DNA of 60,566 nt, counting the filler, from Hausera hauseri (taxonomy: Eukaryota), in NCBI GenBank assembly GCA_046269625.1. It is 11 parts of 11 records of this genome, joined end to end, with 100 filler letters (N's around TTAATTAATTAA, not from the genome) between each part and the next. Parts side by side here need not be neighbours in the genome. Positions count along the whole stretch, not along the records: positions 4,246 to 8,660 come from JBJURY010592889.1; 10 more parts are not named here. The stretch is one strand, 5' to 3'. Shown piece after piece: positions 195 to 53,295 of this stretch. Position numbers and translations under genes: made by a program. Within the stretch, counting starts at the first letter, position 1; the number at the start of each line of letters is the position of its first letter. The notes below the pieces were generated by a model. It saw only the letters and a program-made list of their open reading frames with translations, was not told the DNA's origin and searched no databases.

Positions 195-1300
195 ATGATT
201 CAGGAGCTAAACATTCGTACTCGCAGAAGACCTACAGCGTGGGAACTTAACAGATCATCTCAGTGGTGGGATATTATTGTTCCTGGTTTCTCAGACGCTC
301 AATGGCTGCAAAACTTCAGGATGTCTCAACAAACGTTTATATACCTGTGCAACAAACTACGTCCAGCACTGGAGCGACAAAATACAAGCTTCCGCAAATG
401 TGTGCCATTAAAGAAGCGAGTTGCAATAGCACTCTGGAAGCTGGCTACTGGTTCTGAGTACAGAAGTACTGTATTGGACATATTTTTGGAGTCAGCATCA
501 TGACTGTGTGCAAGTGTTTGCAGGAGTTTTGTGCGGCAGCCGAGTTGTTGTTGGTGCCAGAACAGATCCGTATGCCTGATGATGAGAGGTTCAGGGAGAT
601 GTCTGTCTACATTGAAAACAGGTGGGGGCTACCACACTGTGTAGGTGCAATCGATGGTAGCCACATTCCCATTATAGCACCACAGCACTATCACACCGAT
701 TACTTTAATAGAAAAGGTTGGCATTCAATTATACTTCAAGCTGTTGTGGATGGAAAGGGGCAGTTCTGGAATGTGTTTGCGGGATTGCCAGGGAGCATGC
801 ACGATGCCAGGGTGCTCAGACTGTCCACGCTGTGGGAGCTAGCCAGCCGGGGAAACCTGTTCCCAGCTCATATTAGGACTATCGGCACAGCAAATACTGG
901 CTACTACATTCTGGGTGATGCAGCTTATCCCCTGCAAGACTGGCTCTTAAAACCATTTTGTGACACAAGAAGGTTAACAGCAGAACAGCAATTTTTCAAC
1001 CTAAAATTTAGTAGTACACGTGTAGTTGTAGAAAATGCTTTTGGTAGACTGAAGGGAAGATGGCGTAGCCTCCTGAAACGAAATGACTGTGATGTACAAC
1101 TTGTGAAGTCCATGGTGCTGACCTGCTGTGCACTACATAACCTGTGCGAAAGTCATGGAGAGTCATATGACACTTCACTCGATGAACCTTGTGCAGAAGC
1201 AGCGACGCCTCCACAGACAGCTGTGCAACAGGAAGTTGAAGGAAGAGATGTGAGAAATGCTCTAATGGAATACCTCTTGAGCATTGACTTTCAGACCTAA
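195..1300 (+). pseudogene. Harbinger (HARBI1-like) DDE transposase, last exon, frameshifted at 467-473
   Basis: Acceptor ccag at 191-194. Motifs NFRMS, GAIDGSHIPI, NRKGWHS, PGSMHDARV, LGDAAYPL, VENAFGRLKGRWR, LHNLC. A 5-nt insertion splits ORFs 180-503 and 500-1300. Confidence 0.93.
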
Positions 1301-4245: not shown

Positions 4246-4652
4246 TGTGGTTGAATTGAATCCCTTAAGAATTTCATCCCAACCACCACGGTTAGTTACC
4301 CTATCTTTTGTTAACTTATCCATATGGTGAGCTAATTCCCTTACCGTGTGATGTCATTTAGCATCTATCTCCGCTTGATTTCTATAACTAATTACTATGC
4401 ATCCCAGTGCCATCAATAATCGATTCTGATCACAGTCTTTTAATAATCGTGCACAATGCTTTATTTAAACCTCCTTTCATTTCGTATTTATGTAATAACC
4501 GCGTGATTTGTGACGAAAAGTTTCTAGCAGTTTCTATTATAGACTGAATGGAATTGTTGTAATACCTGGTATTTGCTTAAGTTGTTTTGGGTTTGCTTTT
4601 TTAATTAATTGTTCTAGAAGTTCATGAGTTGTCAATGTCACTTCTGGTATAT

Positions 4653-7364
4653 TTATATTGTTCTGGTTTGATGTATCCGGGATCGGATTTTGTGCTGGTT
4701 TGCTTTTATCGTCAGTAATAGTGAATCGTTGTAGATTATCATATAATATGTCTTCAAATGTTTCCCGTTGATCCCTGCGTTTTCGCGACAAAGATCTTTT
4801 CTTTCTTTGCCTTTCTGGTTTTTTTCTTCTTCAGGTTTTTCTTCATCATCACTTACTGGCTTAAAATTGCATTTCCTCGGTCTTCCTCCTTTTTTCTTGG
4901 TGCCTATTTCCATTGTAATCTGATAAATCTTTCCCGTACGTAGTCCATAATCCACGACATAATCGTTATCAACAGCTAATCTGCCATAAACATCAGTTTT
5001 CGCTATTATATTGGTTTCGAGATCTAATTCATCTAGTACTTTTCTTCGAAGATCTGGAAATTTAGTGAACATTCCTGCTGTTTCTTCAATTACTTGTTCT
5101 CGATTATTGGTTTTAATCTTTATATTTATAATATATGGTTGCTTTCTTCTATGTTTCCGTCTTAAATCTCTTCCTATGGTTTTTAATAATTTTATTGCGG
5201 CTAAGAAACAAAATATAACGTCCCTTGTCAGTGGCATAAGTAATGGTGCACATTCTATTCGATTGATTAATGGTAGTGTTTCATATTGTCGTAAAGCATC
5301 CCATACCTCATTGGGTGCTGAATCAATCATTTGTAATTTGGCTTTGATTGTTTCCACTACTAACTCCGAATTTTCACCATATACTATGGATCCTGGTGGA
5401 ATATTCATTTCCGGGATAATTTTTGGATTTTTGATTGGTGATAGTGTATTCTCGGGATACTGGAGCGTATCTGATATTGATATCAGGTCATCATCTAAAA
5501 TTTCGTATATCTCTTCATCCGTTATCTGAGGTTCCTTCTTGGATGTGCTTGGTTGCATGGAGTCCCAGATATTTTCGAACAACGTTGGTCGTTGTGGTGG
5601 AGCTATTGGTTGGATAAATGGTGCGACTAATCTATCATCATACGGGTCTATCCATTCTCCAGTTGGTCTAATTCTGACAGGTTCCTGTGAATATTCATCA
5701 GCATCAATATCTGGGTATCTTTGAGTTATTGGTTCGATTACCGGAATTGCTCTAGCTTCTTCAGTTTTCTCTAATTCTTTTATTACTGGAAAGGCTATTC
5801 GTAACATCTTTTGACTTTCTATTATCCATGGCACATTATATTCCACTCGTATTGTTTTTAGATATTCATCTAAACATCTTTGCGCCATAATTTCTGAGTT
5901 ATGACCATTATATAGGTCCAAGCATTTGTAGCTCCTATTTGTCTGTTCCAAATCATAGATAGCAGTTAGATTTTCTGGGTTTATATTCAATGTATTCAAT
6001 AATTCTGGTAACTGACGACCAATAATTATTTTTCCTGGTAAATATCTATTCATAAATTCACTTACTGATTCTTGTCGCTGCGGATTGAATCGTCTACTAT
6101 ATTCGGTATACTTGGTAGTGTCCGGTATATTTGGATATACATGGCTGTTAAGGATTGTTTTCCCTTCTAAGTTTTTGGCAGTGACCTGAGTAAGTCCTTT
6201 TTGATCTACTTTACTTATACATCTGCCAGTAAGAATTATTTCTCTGTCTTGTGTCACAGGTTCATCCACAGTTAATGCAGGTATATTCTTGAGCAATTGT
6301 ATCAAATATACCGGGCAGTCATCCAAGGGTTGAATCTGATAATCTCCTTCATAAGGATAATTAGGGAGTATCTTAGTTTCCTTAGAAACTATTACTGTTT
6401 TATTATTAATTTGTAATCGAGCTTCTCCTTGATTGGTAATTATAGCACATGGTGGATCCTCTCTTTTGATTCGAATATCAGTCCTTTTACGGTAAATCTT
6501 ATCAATGCCTCCCATACAAATCGATCCTTGTTCAGCTATATCCGCGAACTCTATTCTATCAGTTTTCTTGTCCTCAAACAGTTTATCCCATTTCTGAACA
6601 GTACTTATGTCCATACGCTGCAATGCTACTTCTGGGATTAAGGTAGTATTGCATGTTATTTCTCGTTGGAAGTATCCATCGTTCCTATATAATGGTCTAC
6701 TTGGGAAAATGAAATATGGAGATCCTTGACGGTTAAGTTTAATTTGGTACTCTTGTCGTAAATTATTCAATTGTTGTAATAATGTGTCTTCTCTTTTCCA
6801 TTGATCATCTGGCAAATTAAAATTCTGATCTACACTAAACGTACCAAAGATATCAGTTTCCTTCAATTGTATTTCTGTAAATAACCATGGTAATTCTATT
6901 CCAACTATAAGTTTTCCACAGAGTATTTGTCTAAGGTTTTCATAGCATTTTTCTTTTTTCTTATTTACATCTTCTAATTCAATTATCAGATCTCCTTCGA
7001 TATTCTCTATTCTTATTCGGTTAATTTTTGATTCTTGTTCTTGTTCATTAGTTTTTTCTATTGCTACAAAAGTTGAAAGTAAATTTTTAATTTCTTTAGT
7101 TTCTGGCCATAACATGTATGGAAGTGTATTTCTTTGGATATCTGGCACTTTTCGTTTTGCCTGTTCCAATTGTTTTCTAGTTATAAAGGGTTTCTCCAGA
7201 ATAGAATTATTGTTTGACAGTTCAGATGTTAGTTGATGAGGTTTTATTACAGATTTTGCCATTACCAAACCCGTAAAAGCTGATTTAGTTTGTTCATTAA
7301 AAGTTACTGAACGACGAGGCAAAGCATTTCTTTCGTCGTTATTACTTTTTCTAATATCTGGCAT
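4653..7364 (-). CDS. 903-aa retroelement accessory protein: degenerate DEDDh exonuclease-like unit(s), cupin-like domain, ubiquitin-like domain, AT-hook
   Basis: Intact ORF. LTQVTAKNLEGKTILNSHVYP...LPGKIIIGRQL...GHNSEIMA (REX4/ISG20-like). IITNQGEARLQINNKTVIVS (cupin). INIKIKT...YGRLAVDNDYVVDYGLRTG (Ubl). GGRPRK. Confidence 0.75.
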   Translation of the reverse strand: MPDIRKSNNDERNALPRRSVTFNEQTKSAFTGLVMAKSVIKPHQLTSELSNNNSILEKPFITRKQLEQAKRKVPDIQRNTLPYMLWPETKEIKNLLSTFVAIEKTNEQEQESKINRIRIENIEGDLIIELEDVNKKKEKCYENLRQILCGKLIVGIELPWLFTEIQLKETDIFGTFSVDQNFNLPDDQWKREDTLLQQLNNLRQEYQIKLNRQGSPYFIFPSRPLYRNDGYFQREITCNTTLIPEVALQRMDISTVQKWDKLFEDKKTDRIEFADIAEQGSICMGGIDKIYRKRTDIRIKREDPPCAIITNQGEARLQINNKTVIVSKETKILPNYPYEGDYQIQPLDDCPVYLIQLLKNIPALTVDEPVTQDREIILTGRCISKVDQKGLTQVTAKNLEGKTILNSHVYPNIPDTTKYTEYSRRFNPQRQESVSEFMNRYLPGKIIIGRQLPELLNTLNINPENLTAIYDLEQTNRSYKCLDLYNGHNSEIMAQRCLDEYLKTIRVEYNVPWIIESQKMLRIAFPVIKELEKTEEARAIPVIEPITQRYPDIDADEYSQEPVRIRPTGEWIDPYDDRLVAPFIQPIAPPQRPTLFENIWDSMQPSTSKKEPQITDEEIYEILDDDLISISDTLQYPENTLSPIKNPKIIPEMNIPPGSIVYGENSELVVETIKAKLQMIDSAPNEVWDALRQYETLPLINRIECAPLLMPLTRDVIFCFLAAIKLLKTIGRDLRRKHRRKQPYIINIKIKTNNREQVIEETAGMFTKFPDLRRKVLDELDLETNIIAKTDVYGRLAVDNDYVVDYGLRTGKIYQITMEIGTKKKGGRPRKCNFKPVSDDEEKPEEEKNQKGKERKDLCRENAGINGKHLKTYYMIIYNDSLLLTIKANQHKIRSRIHQTRTI

Positions 7365-8094
7365 GTTTCCTTTTTCTTTTGTAGAATCGTTATAAGATGG
7401 TATTGCCTAATCCGGTTTTCTCTCAATGAAATTCCTGGAATATTCTGGCGTCGAATTCCTATCATTAGATAGAACCCAATAGAACCCAAACTTCGCTTAC
7501 TGATTAGGTTTTTTGAAATGCGGATAGTTAGAAGTATCTCTGGTTCCGGAAAGAAAATTTTTACGTGTGTTTTTGTTTTGAACGTTTGGTATATATATCA
7601 GTATTCTTACTCTAATTTGTAATTCAAATTTATAAATCACCGTTCAATTTTGTAAATTCAACACAATTCAAAACCTATAATTCAAAGTTGCTAGCCACTC
7701 AAATTTACAATAATTCAAAGTTTCTAGGTAAATTCTTGGCCGATTTTCATAAATCCGTGTTCAATTTCCATATTTCTGGTTATTTACATTTTTTCATTTA
7801 CCTATTCACACGTTTGTTGTTTAGTAGTCAATTGGAAAATTGGTTCATAATTTGTATATTTCGATATTTCGATTTTTAAACAAGTGAAATTAAGTTTAAC
7901 TTGTCGTCAACTTGCTTCATTCTACCGCACCGTCACTCTAATTTGAGTAACAAGACACGGATAAAAAACAGGATAATAAAGGTGTGCCCATCACTGGGGT
8001 TTAACACTTAATAGGAAATAATATACAAATGTATTGTTATGACATCAGTTCATAATAATCAATGTTGTCAATGTTGTGTCATAAGTTCAAATGT

Positions 8095-8162
8095 TGTCAA
8101 TATTGTATCATGAGTCCATAGTCAACCTCGTCAATGTTGTATCATGAGTCCATAGTTAACCT
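8095..8162. repeat. Two 34-bp tandem copies near the LTR start
   Basis: GTCAAT(A/G)TTGTATCATGAGTCCATAGT(C/T)AACCT twice. Confidence 0.85.
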
Positions 8163-8167
8163 TAACA

Positions 8168-8365
8168 TCTGCATAGTGGGCAAGACATTTTACTGCTTAG
8201 CCATTTCTGCAGACGGCCTATACAGAACGTATGTGCATCACATTTTGCCATTCGTATTGTCTTATCAGACATCTGCTCCCAACGAATCGGACAAGTTTTC
8301 GAAATTTTTTGAAATAATGAAAGGCTAATGCAAGCAATGTCGCACTGTATTGATTTTTTATTCAA
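8168..8365 (-). pseudogene. Small RING-finger gene of a Polinton, interrupted at its end by the LTR
   Basis: CDIAC...CDAHTFCIGRLQKWLSSKMSCPLCR. Lies downstream of the pPolB C-terminus, as does the RING at 21963-22131. Confidence 0.7.
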
Positions 8366-8533
8366 ATGTCAAATTTATTGATATTACTTTCTCTTTATCT
8401 ATATAGTAGTTACTTAGTTTTACTTGGCCTTACCACACCTCCCATATTATTTGATCAATAAGACAACACGATATTTCTATACAAGATTTATTACAACAAA
8501 GAACAACAACAAAAAATAACAATATATACATAT

Positions 8534-8660
8534 TTACAGTGCAAACATGTCCATGAGGCATTATGTGGACTCCATCGCTCAGAATCTGCCGCTTGTCGTC
8601 CATCCAATCTAGGCTCTTCTTGTGCAGTTCTACTGTTTGGATGTTATGATCCCTAGATTG
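8534..8660 (-). pseudogene. C-terminal end of Polinton protein-primed DNA polymerase B
   Basis: QSRDHNIQTVELHKKSLDWMDDKRQILSDGVHIMPHGH (DDKR...GH terminal motif). Confidence 0.8.
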
Positions 8661-9249
8661 NNNNNNNNNNNNNNNNNNNNNNNNNNNNNNNNNNNNNNNN
8701 NNNNTTAATTAATTAANNNNNNNNNNNNNNNNNNNNNNNNNNNNNNNNNNNNNNNNNNNNCAACACCTCATCATTTTCACATGCTGGATAAACATTTTCC
8801 ATTGTCAACAATATTCCCATCGTCATTATCAGACATCAAGTACGAATTCCTTCGAATGGATGCTGACATGAACACAGATGACTTCCTAATCAATCTCTTT
8901 AATATTCTTATCATATTCATACAGCTTCTGTGCTCATGACTACACGCGATGCAAGGATAAAACAATCAAACAACGATAGCACCAGCCGTGAAGATAACAA
9001 CGACAATCAAAATGAAGATCCACGAAAATGCTGTCTCAAAACAGCCGAAATAACCTCAACCAAATACCAACCTCTTACATCGTGTCGAATCCAACTCCAC
9101 CTATACATGACGCCGAAATTACATCCGCCAATCTATATTTATTACAATAACCCTTCTAACCTGTAGTTTTTGTTTCCCCACGTTTTCACCAGTCGTTTAA
9201 TCGACTGAATTTTAGTACTTGTATTGTGCGGCCTATACAAGGCTTTTTG

Positions 9250-10830
9250 AACAATGCAAATTTCTAAACAATGATTCCCATTTTGCTTGGTAGCAAGTGC
9301 CTTCTAATATCTTAATCATAGCTCGGTTCAATTCATGCGTACGTTGGCGTGGAATAGCAAAAAATTGTCTAAATGCTTCAACTTCCTTTAGTCTATAAAT
9401 ACCTTAAGTTGCAGTGTCTTGAAATTTGTCGTCCGTTATTCCTTTGACTACGTTAGTTCCCGTTAATTTACTTGGCGGAGTAATTATACCTCCATTTGGT
9501 AAACTTATCCAGTCAGTTTCACTGAGTCTGAACTTTGGTTCTCTTAAACTAGTTTTACATACTTTCAGAATCGTTCGTTAAGTTGAGTGTGCTAGTAAAA
9601 TTCTCGGCATATTCTGATATAATACTGCCAGTTCTTGGATGCATCTTTTTTCTTCAACATTTATGGATGCGTGTCTTCTTTCGCACTCGTAGGGTAATAA
9701 AACTTTGTTAATAACCTGACGAAAGACACCATCCTTCATTGGAATTATTGGTGACACTAATTGTGGATTAGCATATATTATAGTAATTTTAGTTATCATA
9801 ATGTCTAAGTCTAATTTGCAATCATTGGTTATCATTTTATTATACAGTTCGGTTATTCCGGTTTGTCCTTTGAAACAGAAGTAGTCATCTCTATTCTTCG
9901 AGTAATCCTCGATTAGTATATCTTGTGTTTCGAGTTTGAATTTCTGAGAATTTATTTACGTTTCGGCAACAAAAAATGCTTCGTAACTGGTGGCGTACGT
10001 CATTGCGTCACAGCGTGTGAGTACGCTTTTTTCATAAATTTCAACCCATTAGTATCGGAAACCAATACGGTTGACGTGGGTTATTCTGCTACTTCTCGCG
10101 TTTTCGAACCAGTATCCATACTGCTTATATAACGTTTTCTTGACGTTTTGCGAAACTCTAGTTCTTTAATTTTTATAAAGTTACAATGAGTTTTCGCTGG
10201 GGGTTCCCAAATTACGGGTGTACTTCTAAATGCACAAATGCCGACTTGTATATGACACTTGATTTTCAGTATAGAGTTTAGTACTGCTAGGAAACATCAC
10301 TTTTTGTGCACGCATTTCAGATTCATGAAAATCAACAAATATTACGCCTGCATTTATTCCTTTTCCGGTGTCATATTCAGCTCCACTGCATACGCCGGTA
10401 TGCATATATAATTTTCCGACTGCTACTTTAAGTTATCAAATTATTTTTCCTTGTTGTACTTCAAGTTCCATTCCATCCCAATGTAATCTACCCGTTTCTC
10501 TAGCCTGTTTACAATGTTGCCTTTCTACGTTCATTGGGATTGGTGAAATTGTCGGATGTTGTATTGATGAATGTCCATGCATTAGTCCACAGTGGAAAAT
10601 ATTATGGGATCTTAGTAGCATACATTCTATTCCGTCTAACAAGATTAGTTAACGTTGTTGTTATAATACATAATTTTTCTCTTCTGCTTCTAATTTCTGT
10701 GGCTTTACGTCTTCGCACATTTCTAAATCTATTAGAGAATATTTTCGACCAAGTCTGAATTTGTCCCAATCATGTACTGTAACAGCTCCAATTTGCTTTA
10801 CTAATATCATCAAGGTTAGGAATTTAATTA
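9250..10830 (-). pseudogene. Decayed chuvirus-like glycoprotein (env), second copy or subfamily
   Basis: Fragments collinear with 45900-47730: KQIGAVTVHD, FHCGLMHGHSSI, HCKQARETG, MITNDCKLDLDIM..YANPQL. Many frameshifts. Confidence 0.85.
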
Positions 10831-12940
10831 ACCAATTTGACTCGTTTCCTCGATTATTACCAACTACGTTCCGTAGCATATCATAGAGTCGGTTATCGCT
10901 AATGACAGAAAATGGTCTATTCTGATGTTCTCCATCTTTTTCAAATAATTTGGACCAGTTTACTTCTCGACGCAATTTTCTAGTGGCTTTCCAGGCTAGA
11001 CTAGTGGCTCTGTTAAATTCATTTTCTCGAGTTGGTTTTGCTTTAATGGCCAAATATAGTAATACCTTCCTCAAATCGTTTATGGTATTTTCTACCATGG
11101 TTTTCGCAATAACTGTTTCAACGGTTTAAGCGCTTTTTGAAAACCTGAAACGGGAATTTCTTATTATTCTGGCTGCAGTATATATAGCCCCTTCCTTCTA
11201 TATATGTAATAGTAGTACGTTACTAGTACGACACCACGTAGACTAGAGTAGTTTACCATAAGTATTAAATTCTTTATGAATTCGTTTAATTCTTCGTTAT
11301 CGGCCTTGAAGGTCGGTATTGATATTTGCCTTAATTCTCAAATCAAGTTTCCTTTATAATCAATCTCTTCTCGTATTTTCCTTGGTCTACCAACGGGGCG
11401 TTACTGCCTTGCTATAACCCATACGACTTCGCTTTTACGTACTAAATTCTTACCATATTGTTCTTTGTCTTCGTCTCTTTGCAAGTACTCGAAATACATT
11501 GACGTGTCTGGTACTTCCATGATTCGCCCTACACATCTGGTCAGTTTTAGCCTTACATGTGGCTTTTTCTTTTGTTTCCTTATTAGCGACTATCACTAAC
11601 ATAAGATTGGATTCGTCTGGGATGATCCCAACGTCTATTAATTGTTTTAGTTCATTCAATATTCGTCCTCTAAAATTAAGTCTATAACTTAATTGGTTTC
11701 ATCTACCGTTATTTATTAACCACTGTTTTACATCTCACAGATGAATAAGTTGTAAATTATCATTCTTTTTCATTCGTCCATTCAGATAATACCTTTACTG
11801 TTAGTCACTTCGAGTTTATCCCTTAGGACTTTATCATTTCTTATTAAAAATTTTGGCACAGCACTGCAAATCGCATGTTCGCTAGATAATTTAGTCAGAG
11901 TAGGAATAAGTTGTCTTAAACTATTTTCAGTAATATTTACCTTAATTAGTTCAATAAAATCTCTTTCCCTCAGCGCTGAATCCGAAGAATTTCCACACTG
12001 AATCTCCGATTTTGTGGGCTGGTCTCCGTTTCGTACAGGGGTACAGTAGTTTTCGGATTCTCAGCAATTATTGCATCTAAATACATATCCCAATCTGGAT
12101 CGTTTTCATTTTCTGGATGTCCGTAGTCAATTATTGGCATCTCTAGTTGTCGGATTGTGTTTGCATTCCGTACCATTTCTCTTACTTCCCGTAATTTTTG
12201 TTGCATTTTGCCCATTTATGTTGTCTGGAAGCCATATACATTTCCGGAAACACGATGAAATAATTTTAACAATTGGCATAATTCATCTGCCTGAATAAAT
12301 CCTTTATATTAGTAATTGGTTAGTTCGGAAGCTACGTATCTGCCATATTTGTACAAATTCTGATTTATTGGCTACTTCCTATTCTTTAAGAGCGTATTTA
12401 TTTTTGTAGACTTCCAAATCTTTAGTTAACTCGTCTGTTACTGTTTTTCTTTATTCGGTACGAATTTTAGTTTTCTGAGTATTACGTATTCGACTCTGAG
12501 GTTGTCTTATTTTTTCGTACCTGATTTCGGCCATTCTACTAATAACAGCGGTATATTGTTTATCTCTTCTAGAATTTTAGAGTCGGGATGGATTTCGTCA
12601 ATTAATTTCTCTACGAAGATTGTTTCGTCAAACGTGAGTCCGTGATCTTTCATTATTTCCATTAATTCAGCATGTAATTTTTCATCTGGCCCAAGCATCC
12701 AATTAGCTGTACTTTCCAGGAATTTTAACACATCTGCAATAGAGTTCTCGTAGTCCGAACAGCACTGTAATATTTTTATTTCTTGCGTTGTGATGTCCTT
12801 TATGGATTTCTCCGTCGAGTGTCGGATCCCTTTTAAGTGAATACTTCTAATTCTAGGATAGAGGTGACATTTCATATTTTGTTTCAACTTAAAACCCGTT
12901 TCTTCAATAATTTTATATATTTGGTTTAATACTGCTTGTT
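10831..12940 (-). pseudogene. Decayed accessory region (Ubl + AT-hook) upstream of env
   Basis: Homologous to 47730-49882: LYPRIRSIHLKGIR, ENDPDWDMYLDAIIAENPKT, YRLNFRGRILNELKQLIDVGIIPD, RPVGRPRK, MVENTINDLRKVLLYLAIK. Confidence 0.85.
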
Positions 12941-13019
12941 GGCCACGTACGCGTCCACGTTGGCCACCTCATCTCCCAGCTTGGGTAGGGTTGGAAAATT
13001 CCCGCCCTCTGGTATGTCC

Positions 13020-13450
13020 GCTAAAACAGGGCTCTTACCTATCGTCTTCTGGACTGTCGATTTCAACGTAAATTCTATTTCTGATAGTATGTTCTCCCAG
13101 TCCACTCGATTTTTCTGCTGTCGTGGCATATATGTATTCTCTGATTGCTTAGAATTGTCACTCAATGATACCGTTTGTGTTGTAGTGGTGTGGGCTCGAA
13201 TAGCATATTTTTATATTCATTGATGACGCCATGTCTTTTATTAATTTCGACTCAAATGCTTTCCCGCAGTCTGTATGTATTTCTTTTGGTGCTCCGTATT
13301 TGAGGATCCATTTCTTTCATATCTCTGCTTTGATGGTTGCTTCATCTTGCTTCGGTATAGCAATTAGGGTTAAGTATCTACTGTACTGATCTATCATTGC
13401 TAAAATGTACCTTTTTTCTCCATGTCTCCTTCATTGGTCCACAGATATCT
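13020..13450 (-). pseudogene. Ty3/Gypsy integrase core fragment
   Basis: DICGP, YILAMIDQYSRY, YGAPKEIHTDCGKAFES, SSPHHYNTNGIIE, TVQKTIGKSP. Stops and frameshifts. Confidence 0.88.
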
Positions 13451-18870: not shown

Positions 18871-19008
18871 GAAAAGTGCATCATTCTGCTGCTTTATCTA
18901 ATAATAATNNNNNNNNNNNNNNNNNNNNNNNNNNNNNNNNNNNNNNNNNNNNTTAATTAATTAANNNNNNNNNNNNNNNNNNNNNNNNNNNNNNNNNNNN
19001 NNNNNNNN

Positions 19009-21775
19009 AAATAAAATTGACGCAACAGGTCAACCAACCCTCAATGAGTTCCTGGACTATGCAGCAAATGAAAGTAGGCAAATCAAGCAGGACAATTCGG
19101 TGGAACTTCAGGTCATTCAAGTCAACCTTAAATTAGAGGCAGCATACAGTAATGTCGATAACGAAATATCAGATCGGACCTTCAAGACGAAGAATAGGAC
19201 AATAATGCAGTCTAACAACATTCATGAATGGATCAATGAGGAATATTCAAAACTTCTCCATGAAGCTGAGGAGAGCCAGGATAAGTGGAACGGCTGGGCT
19301 CTCTCATCAGTCAAGCGATTGTTGATTCATGTATACAAGTACAGCCCGATGAGAGGTAGCTCGTACATAGAGCAACCAGAATGGATCCGCAAGAAGAAAG
19401 CATGTGTATATGTGCACAATCAGGACAACAGGTGCTTTAAATATTCAATCTTGTCTAAACTTATAGCGGATGAACATAATGCCTCGCGGGTTGGGTGGTA
19501 CAATGACCTACGGCATAGCTATGATTTTTATTGCATCACGTTTCCAACAACTCTGGAGGAAATCAAGAAATTTGCACATGTGAACCAGATGTCCATTAAT
19601 ATATTTGCAGTAAACGAATCAAATAGATTCTATTCCCTAAACGTGTGTGAAGTGGAACGCGATGACTATAGGGATCTTCTCATGATAGACAGTGGTGATA
19701 ACAGCCACTACATGTGGATAAAGAATTTCAAACGCATCGTCAGATCCCATATTACAAAGAATCATAGAAAAATTTTTAGCGGCGAAGTTGCTGAGGAGAA
19801 GCTCAAGGAACACATGATGCGCTCCAATAACAACTATTGCATCCGGACTGAATTCCATAAATAAGATTATATCGAGTTTCAGGAGTACGAAAAGATGATC
19901 AAAGTGCCAGTAGTTATCTACTGCAACTTTGAAGCGATCCTCAGACCAATGCACAGTTATAGTCCCAATCCTCAATGGAGTAGCACAACGGCATACCAGG
20001 AGCATGAGTTATCATCATACTGTATGTATGCCAAAGGACTCGATACGGAGGTATTCTTATTCAGGTGTCCAAATGCAGCGGCACACTTCATAAAGCAATT
20101 AGAGGATGTGGTTTACAGAATTGAAGAGATTCGACAGCAGCATAAAGAAACAAATGTGATGTCGTCATCAGAGAAACGAGATTTGCATATGGCAACATCA
20201 TGCAACCTATTCAAAGGACAATTTACGATGGAGAACAGAAACGTAAATACAGAGGCGCAGCTAGCAACAATTGCAGTCTGCGCTGCAAAATTTGTTCTCA
20301 TGTCCCCGTCATATTCCACAATCTCAGTGAATATGACTCCCATTTCATTATTTGTGAATTGGGTAACATGAAAGGTGACATTCAGGTAATCCCGAATAAT
20401 GAAGAGAAATATATATCATTCACTAAATATGTGAGCCACACCAGACTTAGATTTATTGACAGTTGTCGTTTTATGGCATCGTCACTGGACATACTGGTCA
20501 AAGGTCTACCAGAGGAAGAGTTAAAGGAAACGAAAAACTTCTTCCCAACAACTTTCGATTTAGTCAAACGGAAGGGTGTTTTCCCCTATGATTATATAAG
20601 GTCATAAGGATCATTGGACGAGACAACTCTTCCAGCTAAGAAGCACTTCTACAGCCAGCTATCAGGCACAAATATCAGTGATACTGATTATGAACACGCA
20701 CAGCGCGTCTATAAGACATTCAAATGCAGGACAATTAGAGATTATAGCGATGTATATCGCCAAATAGATGTGCTGCTACTCACAGACGTCTTTGACAGAT
20801 TCAGAGACGTCACACTTGCGAGTCACAAGCTGGATCTAACTCATTTTTTTATTGCCGTCGGAATGAGTTGAACGCCAATGCTCGGATATATGATTGTAGA
20901 TCTTAAAAGGCTATGATATGGTCCTCATAATCAAGTGAGGAATGAGGGGAGAAATCTGCCAGACCATTCACAGATATAGTGAGGCTAACAACACTTATAT
21001 GGCAGATTATGATGCAATGAAACCATCGCAATACGTCACATACCCAGATGCCAACAACCTATATGGTTGGGAAATGAGCAACCCATTACCATACGGCAAT
21101 TTTCAATGGGATGAGCAGCCGGACGAGATCAAGATCCAGGACCTGGACCCAAATGGAGATGTTGGATACATATTGGAGGTAGATGTGGAATACCCCAATG
21201 ATATCCACAAAAGGCATGAACAGCTGCCTTTCCTCCCAGAGAGCAAACAGCCGCCAAACGGAAAATTTACAAAATTGCTCTGTCATATGGAGAACAAGGA
21301 GAGATATGTAGCACATTACATTAATCTCCAGCAGGCGATAAAGAATGGACTCCGCATCACGAAGATCCATCGAGCCCTCCAGTTTAGTTAATCCTGGTGG
21401 CTGCAACCATATATCGGTTTTAACACAAAGATGAGGACAGAAGCGAAAAACGACTTCGAAAAGGACCAGTACAAGTTGTACAAGAACAGTGTGTTCGGAA
21501 AAACAATGGAGAGCATCAATAACCGAATAAATATAGAGCTGATCTGTGATTGGAAGAGGGCGAAAAAACTAACTGCGAAGCCCATATATGTTGGCATGTC
21601 CATACTGGACATATCGAAGACACTAACGTATAATTTCCATTATAACATAATGGTGCCAATATTCAACAAAAGGCTAAAGCTAATGTACATGGATACGGAC
21701 TCCTTCGTGTATCAAATCCAAACGGTGGGCATGTATGATGACTTTGCCAGATTATCTGCCCATATGGCTAAATAA
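19009..21775 (+). pseudogene. Polinton/adintovirus protein-primed DNA polymerase B
   Basis: GSSYIE.PEWI..KKA, NQDNRCFKYS, VIFHNLSEYDSH, RFIDSCRFM, RKGVFPYDY, DANNLYGWEMS, KLYKNSVFGKTME, YMDTDS. Multiple frameshifts. Confidence 0.95.
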
Positions 21776-21962: not shown

Positions 21963-22131
21963 ATGGAAAATGAATGCTCAATATGCTTCGAGCCGATGCG
22001 TGGTGCAAAGATAGAATCGCCACATTTGATGATCACTTATTCTGTTGCAGTTGTCTACGACAGCGGCTGAGGCGTAGCATGACGTGCCCCATGTGCAGGG
22101 CAGAGTGTGAATACGCCGTTGTGCATGATTA
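21963..22131 (+). pseudogene. Small RING-finger gene downstream of pPolB
   Basis: MENECSICFE (frameshift) HLFCCSCLRQRLRRSMTCPMCR. Confidence 0.75.
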
Positions 22132-29773: not shown

Positions 29774-30568
29774 TAAATTCACATAATTAATTGACCATAT
29801 GCTTTCGATAATTTTTGAATATCGCTCTTAAAATTTGCGTCACAAGTTTTAGCTTTCGTCGTTTTATTGCTAATAATAGCCATAAAATGTCCTCAGAACA
29901 AATATTTCATAATTCCATAAATTTTCTCTCGTTGTGATGAAAGTTTGAATGTTTGTTTTTAAGTATTTCGTTTAAATTTTTGATTGAAAACGTTTGATTT
30001 AGTCATGCGAAAATATAATGTATTTGGACTCTAATATTGAAAATGGCGAAATTGTATGAAAATAAAACGCTGAAGTATTTGATGTTTTACGTAACTGTAC
30101 TAGATCTACTGTAGTTAATTCAGAGAGATTTATACATCACTAATATACATACAATTTCGTTTGTTAGTGATGCAGAGTATACATTTTCTATAAATTCATG
30201 AGTCATTATCCTTTTAGTGTTTGACTCATTTTATAGCCTATTTTGTATAAAATCATATAATGCACAAGTGCCAATGAGAGTAGTTATAAAAGGCTGCTTG
30301 TAGAACGGCCCCTCAAATTAAAAACCATTTTCATTCGCTCACCCTCAACCACCACTCGTTCATGACATTTTAATTTGGAAAACCGACCCATAGCCCTCAA
30401 TACAACTACTACCAACAATTCAATTATGAAAATATGCAACAAAAATGGTGTCAAATAATTCAGATTGCAAATTTTGTGCAACAGGTCGAATTATAATAAA
30501 ATCAGGTAATAAATAAATTTGGAGTGAATGCACAATTTGTAAATGCTGTATAAATATATTCAATAAAA

Positions 30569-31396
30569 ATGGGTAATCCGAAACCACTGATTTTAAATTT
30601 AAACAAAACCAAATTTCAAAATAAACTATTTCCAAACAATTTTCGATTATTGATGGTTGGATTATTTGGATGTGGCAAAAATGTGTTGTTAATGCATATA
30701 TTAATCCAACCAGATTTCTTAGATTATAATAATTTGTTATTTTTTAGTACAACTATAAATCAACCAGAATTACGGCTGTTAAAATCCGCATTTGAAAATA
30801 GTATTACAAAATTGGGATTATTAAACATTTATGAAAATCAGGATAATTTAATTTCTATGTTAAAAAATCATTTACAAATAGAAAACCCATCTCCGGAAGA
30901 TTTAGTAAAAATGTATAAACTAAACCTTGAATCCTCTAATATTTCAGTTCAAGAAATGAATAAATTAGTTAATGAAAATAACAAAGTTTCTTTGACATTT
31001 TCAAATAAATCTGAAGAAATAATTTCTTGTGACAATTTACCCAAAAATAAAAAGAATTTAATAATATTTGATGATGTAGTAAATCTAAAAAATCAAGATC
31101 TAATGAAATCTTATTTTACAAGAGGAAGACATAATAATTGTAATGTAATATATATTTCTCAAAATTTTTATGGATTAGATAAAAATTCAATTAGGAACAA
31201 CTCCAATTGTTTCATATTTTTTAAATTAAATAAACGCGATAAAGATTTAATATTTAATGATTTATTTACCTTTACTGATAAAGCAAATATTGAGCAATCA
31301 ATTTTAAATCATTGGAATAAGAAGTACAATTACGTTTATTTTTGTAGAGATGATGAAGAAATTTACAAGAATATTTTTATCGAATTGAAATTCTAA
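30569..31396 (+). CDS. A32/FtsK-like packaging ATPase (Polinton/adintovirus type), Walker A degenerate
   Basis: FRLLMVGLFGCGKN, LIIFDD, YFTRGRHNNCNVIYISQNFY, SIRNNSN. Confidence 0.85.
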   Translation: MGNPKPLILNLNKTKFQNKLFPNNFRLLMVGLFGCGKNVLLMHILIQPDFLDYNNLLFFSTTINQPELRLLKSAFENSITKLGLLNIYENQDNLISMLKNHLQIENPSPEDLVKMYKLNLESSNISVQEMNKLVNENNKVSLTFSNKSEEIISCDNLPKNKKNLIIFDDVVNLKNQDLMKSYFTRGRHNNCNVIYISQNFYGLDKNSIRNNSNCFIFFKLNKRDKDLIFNDLFTFTDKANIEQSILNHWNKKYNYVYFCRDDEEIYKNIFIELKF

Positions 31397-32360: not shown

Positions 32361-32499
32361 AGAAATGACTGGTACAACCCGGGGTCTCAAAGTTTTTATA
32401 AAATTTCCTTCGTTCACAAGTAATAATAATAATAAAATAATAATAATAGTATTAATAATAATAATAGTAAAAATAAAAAAATAATAAGAAGAATAAATT

Positions 32500-33157
32500 G
32501 AAAAACCAACCCATAGTCCTCATAAAACAACTACTGCAACACTTCAATTATAAAAATGTGCAATAAAAATGGCCTCAAATAATTCATATTGCAAATTTTG
32601 TGAAACAGGCCGTATAATAATAAAATCAGATAATAATTACATTAGGAGTGAATGCACAGTTTGTAAATGTTGTATTAACATTATTAAAATATTCAATAAA
32701 AATGGATAACCGAAACCACTGATTTTAAATTTAAACAAAACTGAATTTCAAAATAAACTATTTGCAAACAATTTTCGATTATTGATGAATGGATAATCTG
32801 GATGTGGTAAAAATATGTTGTTATTGCAAATGTTGACAGAACCAGGTTCCATAAATTATGATAATTTACTCTTTTTCTCAACAACTATTAATCAACCAGA
32901 ATTACGACTGTTAAAATCCGCATTTGAAAATAGTACTACAAAATTGGTATTTTTAAACATTTCTGAAAATCAGGATAATTTAATTTCTATGTTGAAAGAT
33001 TATTTACAAATAGAAAACCCATCTCCGGAATATTTAGTAAAAATGTATAAATTAAACCTTGAATCTTCTAATATTTCAGTTCGAAAAATGAATAAATTAG
33101 TTAATGAAAATAACAAAGTTTCTTTAACATTTTCAAATAAATCTGAAGAAACAATTT
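32500..33157 (+). pseudogene. Second, frameshifted copy of the Cys-rich ORF + ATPase cassette of 30376-31025
   Basis: Near-identical DYNNLLFFSTTINQPELRLLKSAFENS region and upstream sequence. Cut by the linker. Confidence 0.85.
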
Positions 33158-36445: not shown

Positions 36446-37457
36446 GACTTGGGTTATGCTTGTACATTGATACTAACGATTTTCTTGTGAGAGAAAGGTG
36501 CAAACAGATCATTGAAAAGTGTCTTTATAGATAAAAGATATTGAAGACAATAGTAGGACATAACTCCTAAAATGCAGCGTATTGTTGAAGGGAAGGGGAC
36601 GAACCACGAAAATTAAAACAAAAATTTTTTCGCAAAAACCGACCAATCAGATTATACCAAAATTAAATGGGAGTGGGAATAGTGAAACCCAATCTGCGCC
36701 AGAAAATGCTTTTTTTCACAGCCAAAATTTAAACAAAATTTTTACGTGCCAAATTAAAATTTTTACACGTACCTAAAGTCCATGCCGTACGCGTGCTTGT
36801 GTATCACTTTGACTGTGTGTCTTCTATCTCCGCCCTACTTGCCTTGCGTGTGTGTATCATTTTTCTACCCCATGACTCATCCCGAACGATATATTTTCCT
36901 TCCTTCCCTGGGGGTGTATTGGTGTCATGTCCTCCTTTCTACCTACTAATGTGGATCTGATGAAATTGTTGATTTATTCCGGTTATCTGTGCAATGAACA
37001 ATTTACATCAATGAACAGTTTTCTGAACATGTTTTGATTTAAAAATTATTTTTGTAGTCAGATCATCAACATCAGAACCAACCTTAAGGAATCGCCATGA
37101 CAACATCTTACACATGGATGACAATGTAAGATTGGTCAGGATGTTGAATATATCTGTTCGTCCAGTTCTATTGGAGTCAAACTGAAGTTGTTTGGATGAT
37201 TGACAAGTAGAATATTGTGGGATACGCTTTACAATCAGATTCGACTTTTTGTTTGCTAAAATAATTGCATTTTTCAATTGTTTGATACTATCGAAAAGAC
37301 TGCAAACAAGATATTGAAAGATGTCCTTGTTGGTAAAAGATATTGAAGACAATAGTGGGACATAACTCCTCAAATGTGGCGTATTGTTGAAGGGGAGGGG
37401 ACCAATACGGAATAGTCCAATGAAAATGGTTACATCATATAATTTATTTAATATCAT

Positions 37458-38253
37458 TTGATCATCATTTTATTTCTATATTCTGTGGTAAATGATGATG
37501 ATAAATTATTTAGTAATCTGCTCACAGTATTCTGTTATGTCCTTGTTCCTTGTGATGTCCAACTTGTAAATAACAAAACATATTTGTTACAAAATACGCA
37601 GGGCCGTCAAACAGCAATGCAAGCAGCCCAATTTTGTGAAACCAACAATGGTCATTTGCCAATGGGACCATATTTGGCTAATTTGATGCAATTAGGATGG
37701 ACTGGATTCAATTACTATGTTGGCATAACTGACTTGCTTTATGAACGGTCAAATAACAAAACGGGATGGATAAATTTTGATAAGACCGAATTTACTGACA
37801 TAAGATATTGGTCCCAAATTGATCCGGATGATGGTGCAGGGAAGCAAAATGAGGACTGTATTTTATTTCTTTCACAATATCTAGTGGACACAGGTTGTAA
37901 CAGTCCATATCCGGCCAACTTTGTTTGCGTGTTAGTCAATGCAATACGACCAACATCAGCTGTGGCTACAGTTCAACCAATGGTCGTGAACAATGACTCA
38001 GAAGAAGGAATATCAATCATTTATGAAACGAATAGTAAAATTTGCTGTGTCCAATTGTTAGTAACAATAAATTGTATTACAACTAATAATTTCTAGGTGC
38101 CTCAACAGAGGATCCAATTGCAAAAGTGTGTATTACCGACAAGATACAAATACCTGCATGTTGAACATTTATACAGATCAGTCATTGCCACTGAGATTGA
38201 AAAATGAAAGTACTTTGTGGATTCGATTGAGTTTCAACAACCAATCGGTATAA
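37458..38253 (+). CDS. C-type lectin domain + PAN/apple-like protein; intron 38057-38096; start uncertain
   Basis: AAQFCETNNGHL, YYVGITD, YWSQIDPDDG..NEDC...LVDTGC...FVC. Splicing a 40-nt GT-AG intron gives CCVQLCLNRGSNCKSVYY...CML. Confidence 0.75.
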
Positions 38254-42284: not shown

Positions 42285-44814
42285 GTCCATACGCCCAACT
42301 CTTATTTCGCCCCATCCACGTTCGCTTATCATCGTTACATGACAAATTGACTTTCGCACTAGTTATTATGGACAGCTGGTGCTCAGTTGATCGGAAGATC
42401 GTTTGAGACACAACAGTTCTTCATTGTCCTTCTTCTTCATAGATACGACGGTAATCAATGTGGTCGATTTCCGTCTGTCGTAGCTGAACTAATTTAGCGC
42501 GAATTTTCGGTCCACCGTCAGTTAAAATGCTATAACATTTTGGCCGTAGAAATATCCATTCCCGATACGGCACCCGACCTTCACTTTCATCCTTAAGGCA
42601 GCTCATCTTGTTGGTGATCGCACTGCTGTACAACGGCTGATTTGGTGGATAGTTGGATGTGTCCGGTAATCCATCTGACTGCATTTGCTGCAATAGCTGT
42701 TCGCAATTGACTTTTTTCAGCCGCAGGAAAAAACTGCCTGTGTCACCGGCAAATATACTAATGTTACAGCCGTCAAACATTTGCCGGTAACGTGCCAAAT
42801 TGCGATACTGTAGCTCATATCCGCAACTTGCTCAGATCCAATACCACTTGTCCTATGTAACTTGGCCGATCCAGAACGACTTCTTCCCGGTTTAAAAACA
42901 CCACAACCAATCCATCGGCAATGTACACTGACCGCCAAAACTGCGCCTTACTCGTGTACGTGACCAACCGCTTTTCGCTATTGCATAGGTGTACATTGAG
43001 CCGATTTTTCAGATTCTCCAATGTTTTTCCATACAGGGAATTGTTTTTCAGATTGCAGTAGTCCTTTTTCAACTTTGTACAAGTTGTGGTTCATTTCTCC
43101 GAATTTCCATCTATGTACGCCTTAAATGTGGGAGCCTAAGCAAATCGGATTGCACGATTCAGCTTTGTGACGAGTACACCGAGCTCCATGTAGAACTGTA
43201 ACAGGCGCCAATGGATTACGTAATTAAGCTTCGGTTCATGCGTCATGAGCAGTTTCTTAACTTTTGAACCTGACTGACATTGGTTAAATGGTGCGACCGG
43301 TAAATCGTCCTAAACGTCATACAGCTCATCTGGTACCACGAGATCGACTTCCATCAGGTATCCGACTGAGCCTGCAATGTCTGATCGTGGTAGGTTGACC
43401 ATTATGCCGTCCACATCTTGTCTGTCGACAACCCATTTGAATGAACAGTACGCAAATAGTTGTGAAAGCGCCCAGCCATACAGGTTATTAATATCAATAT
43501 ACAGCAGTGATGTAGTATCGGTAGCACGGATCTGATGCTTGTTGACAAATGTCATGCCGCCGTGAATACCAGCATCGAACAACCGGTACATTTCCGGGTC
43601 TTACAGCTGCTCAATGTCTCGATCCAGTGACATTAGAGCTGACACCCAACTCATTTCCGGTATGGAATAAAAGTTAAGTGGCTCCAGACTTTCTTCAGCC
43701 AACAATGCCTGGAATACATCGGCTAATAAATGCACGCCCAGTGTAAGATACTGGAGCATGTAATCCAACATGTTTCTACAGCCGAGCTCTGTCCAAGATT
43801 CTTGTGCTGTATGATATTCAAGTTCTGTGATGCCCTTCCATCGCGGCGGTAATTCCTCTGCTGTCCAGAGTCGCTCATACGACGTTGCAAAGTCAAATGG
43901 AAATATAACTTTGCTACGTGCAATATGTTCGAGGAACTGCGTTGAGGTTGTCGGCACATCCGGCAAGGCATTTACCAGCTTCGCCAGTGATTCATTCAGA
44001 AATTGGAATGAATCAAGGAAGCGTACCTGGAACTGGTTTATGCGTTCTGACAGGGACAGGTACTTTTCCATTGTTGTTGGGATTATGGACAGTTCCCAGT
44101 GCAGAAATCCGTTGATGGCCCATTTCAGTTTATGGTGAAAATCATAACCTCGGAAATTATGAAAGATGAACGATAGGAATGGCTGCACACGCCTCACTAA
44201 ATTGCATAAAGTACATGCTGCTGCCAAGTATCGACCAGTAAAATGGTCGTGATTCGGTACGAGCCGTTCCTGTGCATCAAACGGCAATATTTTTTTGGCA
44301 CAGACAACATTCCTCTGTGACTGCAAACGTCAGGCGTTCATCTTCATCTGTACAAATCAGGGGTTTTGTGCTGTTATTGCGATACCACAATGCAATTTCC
44401 GATTCATCTGTTGTTTCGATATGATGCAGGAAATCACGCACACAGTTCCAGCCGTGAAACATGTAATACTACGGTTGACCTGCAGCTTTTATTGGGACAA
44501 CCAATATTCCGACAGCAATTGGAACATGTTTTTGATCGTATACGTCGTTTCGTATGGTATTGCAAAATATCAGCATATATCACATGTTGGACTGTCCGTT
44601 TTAGACCAATCTCTTAATCGCAGATCCTTTTTGACTGGCATGTACATTGTTGTTCCTGATGCAATCTGTCAGCACAGCGTCACATGCGTTTTCCACGTGG
44701 TTTCTCATCTGAAGTCATGCAGACATGTAGGACACCATTTACAACGTATTTGTTTTTGGATAAACTGATGGTGATCCATGTCCCACAGTCGGTCCAAATT
44801 TGTTACGGACACGT
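42285..44814 (-). pseudogene. Polinton protein-primed DNA polymerase B, different family
   Basis: HDHFTGRYLAAACTLCNL, FHNFRGYD, RFLDSFQF, LYIDINNLYGWALSQ, LKNNSLYGKTLEN, AGDTGS, FLRPKCYS, DDKR...AYGH. Confidence 0.93.
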
Positions 44815-44914: not shown

Positions 44915-45240
44915 ATCGATTGCTATATTCGGTAATTGTCTTAGTAAGTCACATTCTAACACTACATCATCTGTTAGTTGCTCAATTACTGAGAATTCAT
45001 GCCGAAAAGATTGTCTTATTATGTGAATTTCTGGTTTCCATCGGAATTTACTCTTCGAGGATTGTCCAAAAGCTCCAATGCTTCCTGGATCCGTCGTAGG
45101 AGGCGAATACAATTGTTTCCGTAGGAATTACGGTATTGAATCATATTTTATCAACGATATTTCAGATCCTGTATCTATTAATGCGTAAACCTTCCAATTT
45201 TCCAATTGAATTTTGGGTTGTCGTATCGTAGACACTCTGT
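44915..45240 (-). pseudogene. Retroviral-type aspartic protease
   Basis: VYALIDTGSEISLI (DTG at 45167-45175) and FSVIEQLTDDVVLECDLL (ILGxD-like). One internal stop. Confidence 0.88.
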
Positions 45241-45889
45241 AGCCGTTGATGGTAACTTCAGTGGTTCCAACTGGCTGATCTATTAATTGTCTTAGCTCTC
45301 CAATTGGGTATAGTTCGTTATTCGTACCATTCGCGTTTTCTACAGCTTGGCTTCTAACTGGCGGCTAAACATCTTGGTTTCGGAGATCGCGTGTCTCACA
45401 ACTTCTGGTAAATAGTGACTGCGTTTCATTTTGTCTAGGTACTTTAGGTAAATATATTATACCGTGATCGTCGACTGCTGAGCGGCGATGTGGGATAAAC
45501 GTTCTCTCTATTTTGTAGATCTTGCGCAATATCCCGTAGCGTTTTGTTCCTTTGTAGGGATCTTCTATGTTAAATGGCTTCCGACAGGCGTCTGTCTGAC
45601 AAGAGCTCATAGATTGTTTCTCGCAATCTTCATGTATAGGTGCCGTTGGTGGCAATATTGGTAATGGTAATTTTATAACAGAGTATTTTTTGTGCCTACT
45701 CGGCCTGGTGATAATGTTTCCTCCCTTAGGCTCGTCATCATCCGAATTATTTCTTCGTGTCTTAGCATTTATAAATTTTTGCCTGTAGTCGAATATACCT
45801 CTTTTCCGTTTTCGATTATGGTAGCCAACATGTCGTTCTACATTTGTTTTCCATTTACTCTCTTCATAAGCCTTTAAGAATTTGCCGAA

Positions 45890-50700: not shown

Positions 50701-51241
50701 ACTGTTCTTCCTTACCAGAAATATCCACTTGTTCGCTAATTACTTTGAGTTTCTCTAGGTTCTGTCGTAATACCTCTGGGGTGCGACAATTCTTCCTCAT
50801 TCTTTTTAACTCCTCTGCATCTTTCCACGAGCATTTAATTTTCCACTTTTTAGGATCGAGTTTCTCCTCTTGTTCTGTTTCCTCTTCGCTAGTGGGTAAA
50901 TGGCATGCGTCATTTATTTTATTTATAGATTTCGTCGGCTCATCCATTTCGCTTGGCGTAACTAAATTAATTTCCGGAACGCTCGATGCGCATTCCGCGT
51001 CGCTTTCTAACGCGATTTCAGTTTCTCTCCTTGTGCTCGACTTTTGCTTAAACATTGGGGATCTCGAACGATCCTTACGTTTTTGTCTCAATGATGGGCT
51101 ACGGCCTCTATTCTTGGTAATTTTAAGTATGTGGTTCAAGAAATTTTTCTTTTTCGTCGAACTCTGCCTCCTTAGTTACCGTTTTTATAGTATATTTGGG
51201 TTCTACATCCAAATCTGCTTCACCTGTGTCTTAGGCTTTTC
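47731..51241 (-). pseudogene. Accessory polyprotein region between Gag and Env (charged/helical part, HAT-like repeat, Ubl at about 48460-48677, AT-hook-like)
   Basis: ORFs of 411, 176 and 434 aa separated by stops or frameshifts. The 434-aa ORF is in frame with env across one stop that is Trp in the 10.9-kb copy. Confidence 0.75.
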
Positions 51242-52862: not shown

Positions 52863-53275
52863 TGCTTCGACGCTTAATAACTTAGGTTTAATTAGTTTGC
52901 GAACTTTAATTTTTTTCTCAGGGACTTTAAACTCAATTGGCGGATTAACAGCGTTTGCTTCGATAACTTTATTATCAGTTAAATTTGATTCCGATAACGT
53001 ACGTCTAATCCACGTATTCCCTTCCTTAATAAGTCTATTTCGTGTTTCACGAACGTTGATGTTCTCCTTACCGTTTAAAATAAGATTTAAATTTTCGTTT
53101 GACTGTGGTCTGTCAATATCCGTTCGTACTTTTAAATGTGTCGTTAGTAATCCTGAGGGTTTTCAATCTAAAATTTTAGTCTCTCAATAATCTACAATCA
53201 ATTACTCGATGTGGTAGCGCTGATCGCTAATGTGTCGTTACTTTTCACTAAAGTCAAGTCTAGCAAGTGCAAACT

Positions 53276-53293: not shown

Positions 53294-53295
53294 AA

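Follow-up and report, generated by a model that had tools for sequence, protein, structure and literature searches.

Does a candidate ubiquitin-like domain (Ubl) in Hausera hauseri move between a stand-alone gene of a long terminal repeat (LTR) element and a Gag-Env polyprotein, or does it keep one position? The question is raised by a locus at 4870-5530 in a 60,566-nucleotide stretch of assembly GCA_046269625.1 (hereafter the window), which consists of 11 contigs of 4-8 kb each, linked by N44-TTAATTAATTAA-N44. A preliminary description had proposed that a Ubl plus AT-hook module is shuffled between an LTR gene, represented by a 903-residue frame on the contig at 4246-8660, and the polyprotein. 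We conclude, with a probability of about 0.7, that the locus holds a module made of a helical bundle, a likely Ubl and a basic patch, that this module is part of a Burro-type giant gypsy element, present as a frameshifted copy truncated at its 5' end, and that the place of the module, between Gag and Env, is shared by two subfamilies, here called A and B.

Position of the module between Gag and Env

The four regions under comparison lie on four separate contigs (4246-8660, 8761-13450, 44915-51241 and 51342-56267), all on the minus strand. The motifs quoted in the preliminary description are present at their coordinates, on the minus strand of three different contigs. Subfamily A has VYGENSELVVETI (5384-5346), PLLMPLT (5246-5226), IKLLKTIGRDL (5195-5163) and GRPRK (4886-4872). 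Subfamily B has VYSPDQRFNVEML (48899-48861), LVPTLTKL (48785-48762) and GRSRK (48260-48246), and a second B copy has YRLNFRGRILN (11686-11654) and GRPRK (11391-11377).

The 903-residue frame is not an LTR gene: both of its relatives, P0001 and P0002, carry the counterpart fused to Gag. P0001 (1339 residues), the single relative obtained by a word search among 7995 candidates, spans Gag to the second of two exonuclease-like domains. Without a break in frame, its Gag capsid (Retrotrans_gag, E 7.6e-4, short of the Pfam cut-off) and a region rich in arginine and aspartate lead into the equivalent of the first 480 residues of the 903-residue protein (62% identity). A HMMER search of 1.84 billion representatives gave two matches, newly adding P0002 (1963 residues; 56% identity over query residues 3-860). 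P0002 is one open reading frame (ORF) that contains the Gag tail, the entire counterpart of the 903-residue protein, helices with a BH2-like motif downstream of the module (a likeness at motif level), a hydrophobic segment and Env, a Monjiviricetes-type fusion glycoprotein (residues 1345-1952, E 1.9e-63). The intact relatives thus show, in one frame, the order Gag, exonuclease-like 1, cupin-like, exonuclease-like 2, module, Bcl-2-like helices, hydrophobic segment, Env. Among 5715 long candidates P0002 itself was the sole match, and two viral and two metagenome scans yielded no further relative.

The frame of the 903-residue protein breaks near 4815-4830. Past this frameshift, the window copy matches P0002 residues 1135-1327 up to the last base of the contig, 4246 (tblastn, 52% identity, E 6e-51). 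Because the copy continues into this P0002-like region, its apparent C-terminus lies out of frame and is not a real end.

For subfamily B, the regions at 48250-48960 and 11376-12000 are clear paralogues, as had been suggested; their contigs (44915-51241 and 8761-13450) share 68% nucleotide identity over 3.2 kb. Contig 44915-51241 carries, in order, a Gag-distal helical region, the module, GRSRK, helices, a signal-like segment, Env and a protease DTG motif. The Gag of contig 51342-56267 includes a CCHC knuckle, and its end overlaps the first bases of contig 44915-51241, which represents a different copy (82% nucleotide identity over 71 bases). No relative of the 47847-49199 frame was found among the 7995 candidates.

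Taken together, the order in the subfamily A relatives and that of the B contigs put the module between Gag and Env in either subfamily. The claim of shuffling between LTR gene and polyprotein was not upheld, as the same run follows the module in each: the helical bundle comes first, then the Ubl and the basic patch, followed by Bcl-2-like helices, a signal segment and the Monjiviricetes-type Env. P0002 residues 934-1390 and positions 48938-47600 form one collinear alignment (Z 8.2, 0/500 shuffles).

Two further observations concern this part of the elements. The Bcl-2-like helices (4600-4246 and 48150-47800, minus strand) stop just ahead of the hydrophobic Env signal-like segment, which, at the level of motifs, could double as a tail anchor. 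On contig 8761-13450, an integrase-core fragment (13430-13050, minus strand; Pfam rve, E 1.1e-5) runs in the same frame into the cargo upstream of the module. This fragment is likely a nested insertion or rearrangement, since an integrase ahead of the cargo conflicts with the Gag-Env-Pol order.

Domains of the module and probable homology between subfamilies

A motif, language-model leads and conservation indicate that the domain before the basic patch is likely a Ubl. The C-half motif G-K/R-x3-D-x3-L-x-D-Y-G-L/I, a pattern set post hoc after the sequences had been viewed, occurs in three of four copies (4988, 11674 and P0002 residue 1077), is absent from the copy at 48250-48960 and has no match in 200 shuffled windows. 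For both modules, ESM Atlas returned the same clusters, of ubiquitin and Rad60-SLD type, at lead level (0.77-0.82), with PF11976 clusters among the leads. Between the A copies, the Ubl is the most conserved domain, with 65/80 residues identical (81%) compared with 43-70% for the others (p 7e-6 against the pooled rest). When the two B copies are compared, differences are more frequent at third than at second codon positions, both in the Ubl (40/76 vs 22/76, p 0.005) and in the bundle (p 0.001). These differences suggest purifying selection on the module, and to that extent the selected function postulated in the preliminary description finds support. A second Ubl after the first in subfamily B was unsupported by sequence comparison, Pfam or AlphaFold 2 (AF2). 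In the poorly conserved linker at about 5520-5480 (minus strand), we noted a hydrophobic-acidic motif resembling a SUMO-interacting motif, kept in P0002; the corresponding pattern had a match in P0002 but none in the window.

The bundle before the Ubl is the best-predicted part of the module, with a predicted local distance difference test (pLDDT) score of about 66-81. For the A model, the best match in VIA was 7faw (LW/TFIIS N-terminal; Z 8.7, root-mean-square deviation 2.5, 75/84 aligned), tied with HEAT/ARM pieces. Chains of TFIIS N-terminal domain (TND), LW or integrase-binding domain (IBD) type stood at ranks 1, 5, 25, 28, 34 and 39 of 50, with most of the domain aligned, and included domains of MED26, Elongin A, LEDGF and HRP2. 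For the B model, TNDs stood at ranks 28 and 39 (Z 5.6-5.8). Sequence profiles against Pfam and PDB gave no support for a TND or IBD. We also rejected a death-fold reading: no death-fold chain appeared among the 50 VIA rows, and neither a Pfam Death match in one of six members of alignment A2 (E 0.019) nor an NF-kB p100 match downstream of the module (E 1.1, P0002 residues 1202-1264) was significant.

The AT-hook label fared poorly. The strict R-G-R-P core had no match in the window or the relatives, and GRP[RK] occurs in two of four copies, with about one occurrence expected by chance per six-frame shuffled window. The patch has the sequence GGRLRK in P0002, and in the alignment the B-type GRSRK at 48260 falls on another, later basic patch of P0002. 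A basic patch resembling a nuclear localisation signal (NLS) is the simpler reading.

We consider the A and B modules probably homologous, although this is unproven. P0002 aligns to the B module in the register proposed in the preliminary description, with marginal support (Z 3.5, 9/1000 shuffles). In two independent AF2 models (mean pLDDT 44.5 and 43.3), A and B alike run from helices through a long helix and a beta-hairpin to a further helix, and the A and B bundle models align to the same stretches of 9cpc_1A, 3woz_A, 6zv3 and 6zuz. The proposed parallel between 4870-5390 and 48250-48960 was marginal by way of P0002 and not significant in direct comparison.

Several results weigh against our reading of a shared Ubl module in one slot. 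Comparing 4870-5390 directly with 48250-48960 gave no tblastn match and a Smith-Waterman Z of -0.5 (349/500 shuffles as high), and a profile-profile comparison of the A and B modules with hhalign gave a probability of 2% (E 0.024). Once the start of Env was removed, the alignment of P0002 to B was not significant (Z 1.1, 152/1000 shuffles). No ubiquitin or Bcl-2 sequence match was obtained in Pfam or PDB, the best Pfam result for the former being UBX at E 0.17. AF2 did not confirm a beta-grasp fold, with pLDDT 30-55 over the Ubl although the strand-strand-helix order is visible; Foldseek against PDB and BFVD returned nothing at E<=0.001, but with models of such low confidence the absence of a beta-grasp match is no evidence against the fold. 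Conservation of the Ubl was not significantly higher than that of exonuclease-like domain 2 (p 0.08). Finally, only four copies of the module contributed to the analysis, and the map of subfamily B was assembled from two contigs that represent different copies.

It is unlikely that the two subfamilies independently captured unrelated Ubl genes in the same slot. Chance-level direct similarity would fit such captures, as would the roughly 60 extra residues that B has between the Ubl and the basic patch, but the alignment of P0002 to B in the proposed register, together with the shared secondary-structure order, structural neighbours and flanking order, argues for common descent.

We likewise regard as improbable that in subfamily A the Ubl and KKKGG form a processing signal, at which cleavage after GG by a host deubiquitinase or SUMO protease would separate the cargo on the Gag side from Bcl-2/Env. 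A precedent exists in the ubiquitin insertions of cytopathic pestiviruses (PMC8310069). The GG is kept in both A copies, unlike the proline of GRP, and the high conservation of the Ubl would suit such a role. However, GG follows the Ubl in neither of the two B copies. Moreover, the A-type GG lies 7-9 residues past the last predicted strand, 3-4 residues more than in ubiquitin.

Quite doubtful is the possibility that the bundle is a captured TND or LEDGF-type IBD and, together with the basic patch, anchors the integrase of the same element on chromatin. TND/LW/IBD chains occur among the structural matches of both models, covering most of the domain in A, and the TNDs of LEDGF and HRP2 tether lentiviral integrases (PMC9987994). 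The Z scores, however, are within the range for any helical bundle and tied with those of HEAT/ARM pieces, the TND scores of the B model are lower still, and sequence support is lacking in Pfam and PDB. The likeness to host TNDs and the LEDGF IBD, as presented in that source, is a five-helix, HEAT-pair-like bundle by predicted structure; host TNDs belong to chromatin or elongation factors and are not element cargo. We see little probability, too, in a wider version, by which Burro-type elements would carry a LEDGF-like tether (TND/IBD, Ubl and basic DNA-binding patch) and no host adaptor, plus a moving dead exonuclease cassette, the tether guiding the element integrase or hijacking transcription-elongation factors.

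The truncation junction and the exonuclease cassette

Near 7466, homology to the relatives and high read depth both cease. In run X1, depth was about 12,000-47,000 over 4246-7353 vs 24-54 over 7502-8093; the single contig spanning 7436-7728 has a depth of 7.9, and loose ends at the junction occur in 11 records. Given this drop in depth and the one spanning contig, the junction looks rare and is probably a single-copy event. The copy on contig 4246-8660 is one truncated or internally deleted element copy, which accounts for the impression of an LTR gene. A module that alternates between the polyprotein and a stand-alone LTR gene is very improbable, and at this locus the stand-alone reading is already largely refuted. 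In its favour, the frame is preceded by a RING remnant (8368-8165) and by AT-rich, promoter-like DNA, and the last coding-strand bases of the contig, CCACA, mimic an LTR end. Against it, this CCACA falls within codons homologous to P0002 residues 1323-1327 (position 4246 was rejected as an LTR end on that ground), both relatives are fused to Gag, family depth stops at the junction, and the same run follows downstream in both subfamilies.

Upstream of the junction, depth over 8094-8660 reaches up to 182,000 in X1, with about 600 low-copy bases separating this stretch from the Gag tail. On contig 51342-56267, the DNA that follows the RING bears a weak resemblance to it (score 63; the maximum in 100 shuffles was 61).

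The part that appears to differ in position between subfamilies is the probably dead exonuclease cassette. In the A polyprotein, two exonuclease-like repeats flank the cupin-like stretch. The preliminary description had compared this middle part with 55400-56237: the exonuclease portion of the parallel held (Z 8.2, 0/500 shuffles), whereas the cupin-to-cupin portion did not (Z -0.8). The cupin-like stretch had no Pfam match, and its A-to-B similarity was at chance level. Pfam likewise gave no match to the exonuclease-like domains, and a three-sequence profile of them returned four PDB matches up to E 10, the best being ISG20L2 (E 0.035), with ISG20 at E 2. Where ISG20L2 has its ExoII Asp, each of the three domains has a non-acidic residue, and the acids of the ExoI D-x-E positions are missing, as judged by eye. 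From these alignments, the domains are candidate ISG20-like exonucleases and are likely catalytically dead.

In subfamily B, a cupin-exonuclease-RING frame lies about 780 bases upstream of the likely primer-binding site (PBS). We take 53293-53276 to be this site because it starts with TGG, as is conventional for a PBS. From its position upstream of the PBS, the frame is probably within the 5' LTR. No exonuclease- or cupin-like sequence was found between Gag and the module in B (best Z 2.2 in 30 frame comparisons over 48900-51241 and 51342-53290), and a match with Z 3.4 on 12050-13450 was rejected as short, gapped and chance-like. The idea of one toolkit kept in different positions thus applies to the exonuclease and its cupin-like neighbour, which lie within the polyprotein in A and upstream of the PBS with a RING in B, but not to the Ubl module.

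Table 1. Features of the subfamily A and B copies in the window
Feature	Coordinates	Strand	Basis or remark
Subfamily A, contig 4246-8660
Out-of-frame polyprotein continuation: acidic/basic linker and Bcl-2-like helices	4246-4815	-	tblastn with P0002; frameshifts and stops, cut by contig end
Basic patch KKKGGRPRK, NLS-like or AT-hook-like, contains GG	4872-4898	-	P0002 keeps lysines and GG, not proline
Likely Ubl	4902-5141	-	Motif at 4988; 65/80 identical to P0002; ESM Atlas leads 0.77-0.79
Five-helix bundle, HEAT-pair or TFIIS N-terminal (TND/IBD)-like	5142-5390	-	AF2 of P0002 counterpart, pLDDT about 66-81
Exonuclease-like domain 2 (ISG20/REX4 type), without catalytic acids	5835-6260	-	Three-sequence profile; Z 8.2 to 55572-56267 frame
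Cupin-like stretch, pattern only, not confirmed	6290-6650	-	60% identical to P0002
Exonuclease-like domain 1, internal duplicate of domain 2	6700-7139	-	Z 6.6, 0/500 shuffles
Gag region tail	7140-7466	-	In-frame stop 7407-7409; 5' truncation junction near 7466
Decayed RING finger, very high-copy stretch upstream of junction	8165-8368	-	Pfam zf-RING_2 E 1.1e-6; depth
Subfamily B
Second, more decayed module copy	11377-12060	-	Ubl motif at 11674
Aspartic protease start, DTG motif, after Env	45131-45214	-	Pfam RVP E 0.042; frame of last Env piece
Hydrophobic signal-like segment and Env (Monjiviricetes-type fusion glycoprotein), broken	45968-47729	-	PF24664 E 9.9e-18, 2.1e-13; hydropathy
GRSRK	48246-48260	-	About 64 residues after Ubl
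Helical bundle and likely Ubl	48453-48905	-	AF2 order as in A; ESM Atlas ubiquitin family 0.82; Pfam UBX E 0.17
Gag with CCHC knuckle	51342-52860	-	zf-CCHC E 1.4e-7; end overlaps contig 44915-51241 (different copy)
Likely tRNA PBS, directly after ...TTAACA-TT	53276-53293	-	By eye from TGG start
One reading frame: cupin-like, dead exonuclease, linker, RING	54072-56267	-	Upstream of PBS; three internal stops

Elsewhere in the window, we observed a PIF/Harbinger-type transposase at 458-1300 (plus strand; DDE_Tnp_4, E 1.2e-34) and a Polinton-like, protein-primed DNA polymerase B at 43601-44329 (minus strand; E 4.7e-8). By eye only, 18965-19864 and 30554-31396 (both plus strand) resemble the N-terminal part of such a polymerase and a packaging ATPase, also Polinton-like. 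A duplication places 30371-31025 again at 32494-33157 (87%), a C-type lectin domain lies at 37452-38096 (plus strand; E 1.7e-5), and a decayed, frameshifted RING-like motif is also present at about 21980-22110 (plus strand).

Comparison with known elements and possible function

For the Burro/GYPSM1 giant gypsy elements of planarians, the order Ubi2/SUMO-like, BCL-2, Env, PR is published (Burro section of PMC6431247). The same section reports a MATH domain that belongs to ORF1 in one species but to an upstream ORF in another, and proposes meddling with ubiquitination and apoptosis, so that ubiquitin-pathway cargo and domains switching between accessory ORF and polyprotein were already on record. 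The elements described here resemble Burro in having Gag at the N-terminus of one huge cargo ORF (P0001 is Gag-fused, and B has a CCHC knuckle) and in having, between BCL2 and the protease, an in-frame Env akin to the fusion proteins of mononegaviruses (the ORF of P0002 includes Env, and a protease motif follows Env). For a Ubi2/SUMO-like domain before BCL-2, motifs and position fit; Pfam and fold comparisons gave no confirming match. Both systems place domains either in ORF1 or in an upstream accessory ORF, the domain in question being MATH in Burro. By contrast, the text of the Burro section mentions no exonuclease, cupin or TND-like bundle. Pfam gave no match to MATH, BIR, ankyrin or SMC cargo in 27 frames or in P0001 and P0002, which cover only partial elements. 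Because the copy behind the shuffle claim is truncated and frameshifted and lies on a short contig, and because a Ubl-BCL2-Env layout is published, the headline of the preliminary description becomes an ordinary one.

Other known elements share single traits. Errantiviruses of the HSV/gB type in Platyhelminthes, Nematoda and Bryozoa have the order GAG-ENV-POL (PMC13524379) and are likewise Ty3/gypsy elements, although the main text of that paper does not contain the words "ubiquitin", "exonuclease" or "Bcl". Rotifer Juno/Vesta elements also bear an exonuclease-fold accessory gene, but this ORF3 is DEDDy/RNase D-like, has intact catalytic residues and forms a separate 3' ORF (PMC5408684), whereas the exonuclease-like domains here appear to be of ISG20/REX4 type, lack the catalytic acids and lie in the polyprotein or upstream of the PBS. 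In the literature covered, the module is described nowhere beyond PMC6431247, although Grohme 2018, Repbase and the supplements of PMC13524379 may annotate the exonuclease or bundle; the consulted parts of PMC8532177 and PMC13238120 gave no added domain data.

On our reading of a Burro-type polyprotein, signal peptidase would cut at the Env signal segment and release Env. The module and the Bcl-2-like domain would remain on the cytosolic side, in the cytosol or the nucleus, with the signal segment as a possible membrane anchor. The Ubl may then act as an integral, non-conjugated docking surface and the lysine/arginine patch as a nuclear localisation or general nucleic-acid-binding signal, while the bundle might bind short acidic motifs, as TNDs do (PMC9987994). 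Together, they would serve as a non-enzymatic adaptor for nuclear proteins and proteins of the ubiquitin/SUMO pathways of the host. For the dead exonuclease cassette, RNA binding is the likely mode of action.

The overall architecture was already known, and our additions are modest. To the Burro parts list we add tandem, probably dead ISG20-like exonucleases with a cupin-like neighbour, placed in the polyprotein in subfamily A and upstream of the PBS in subfamily B, and a conserved, TND-like helical bundle attached to the Ubl. Should this bundle prove to be a genuine TND/IBD, the host tether borrowed by lentiviruses would have a counterpart encoded by a retroelement itself, and the integration targeting of such elements would become testable.

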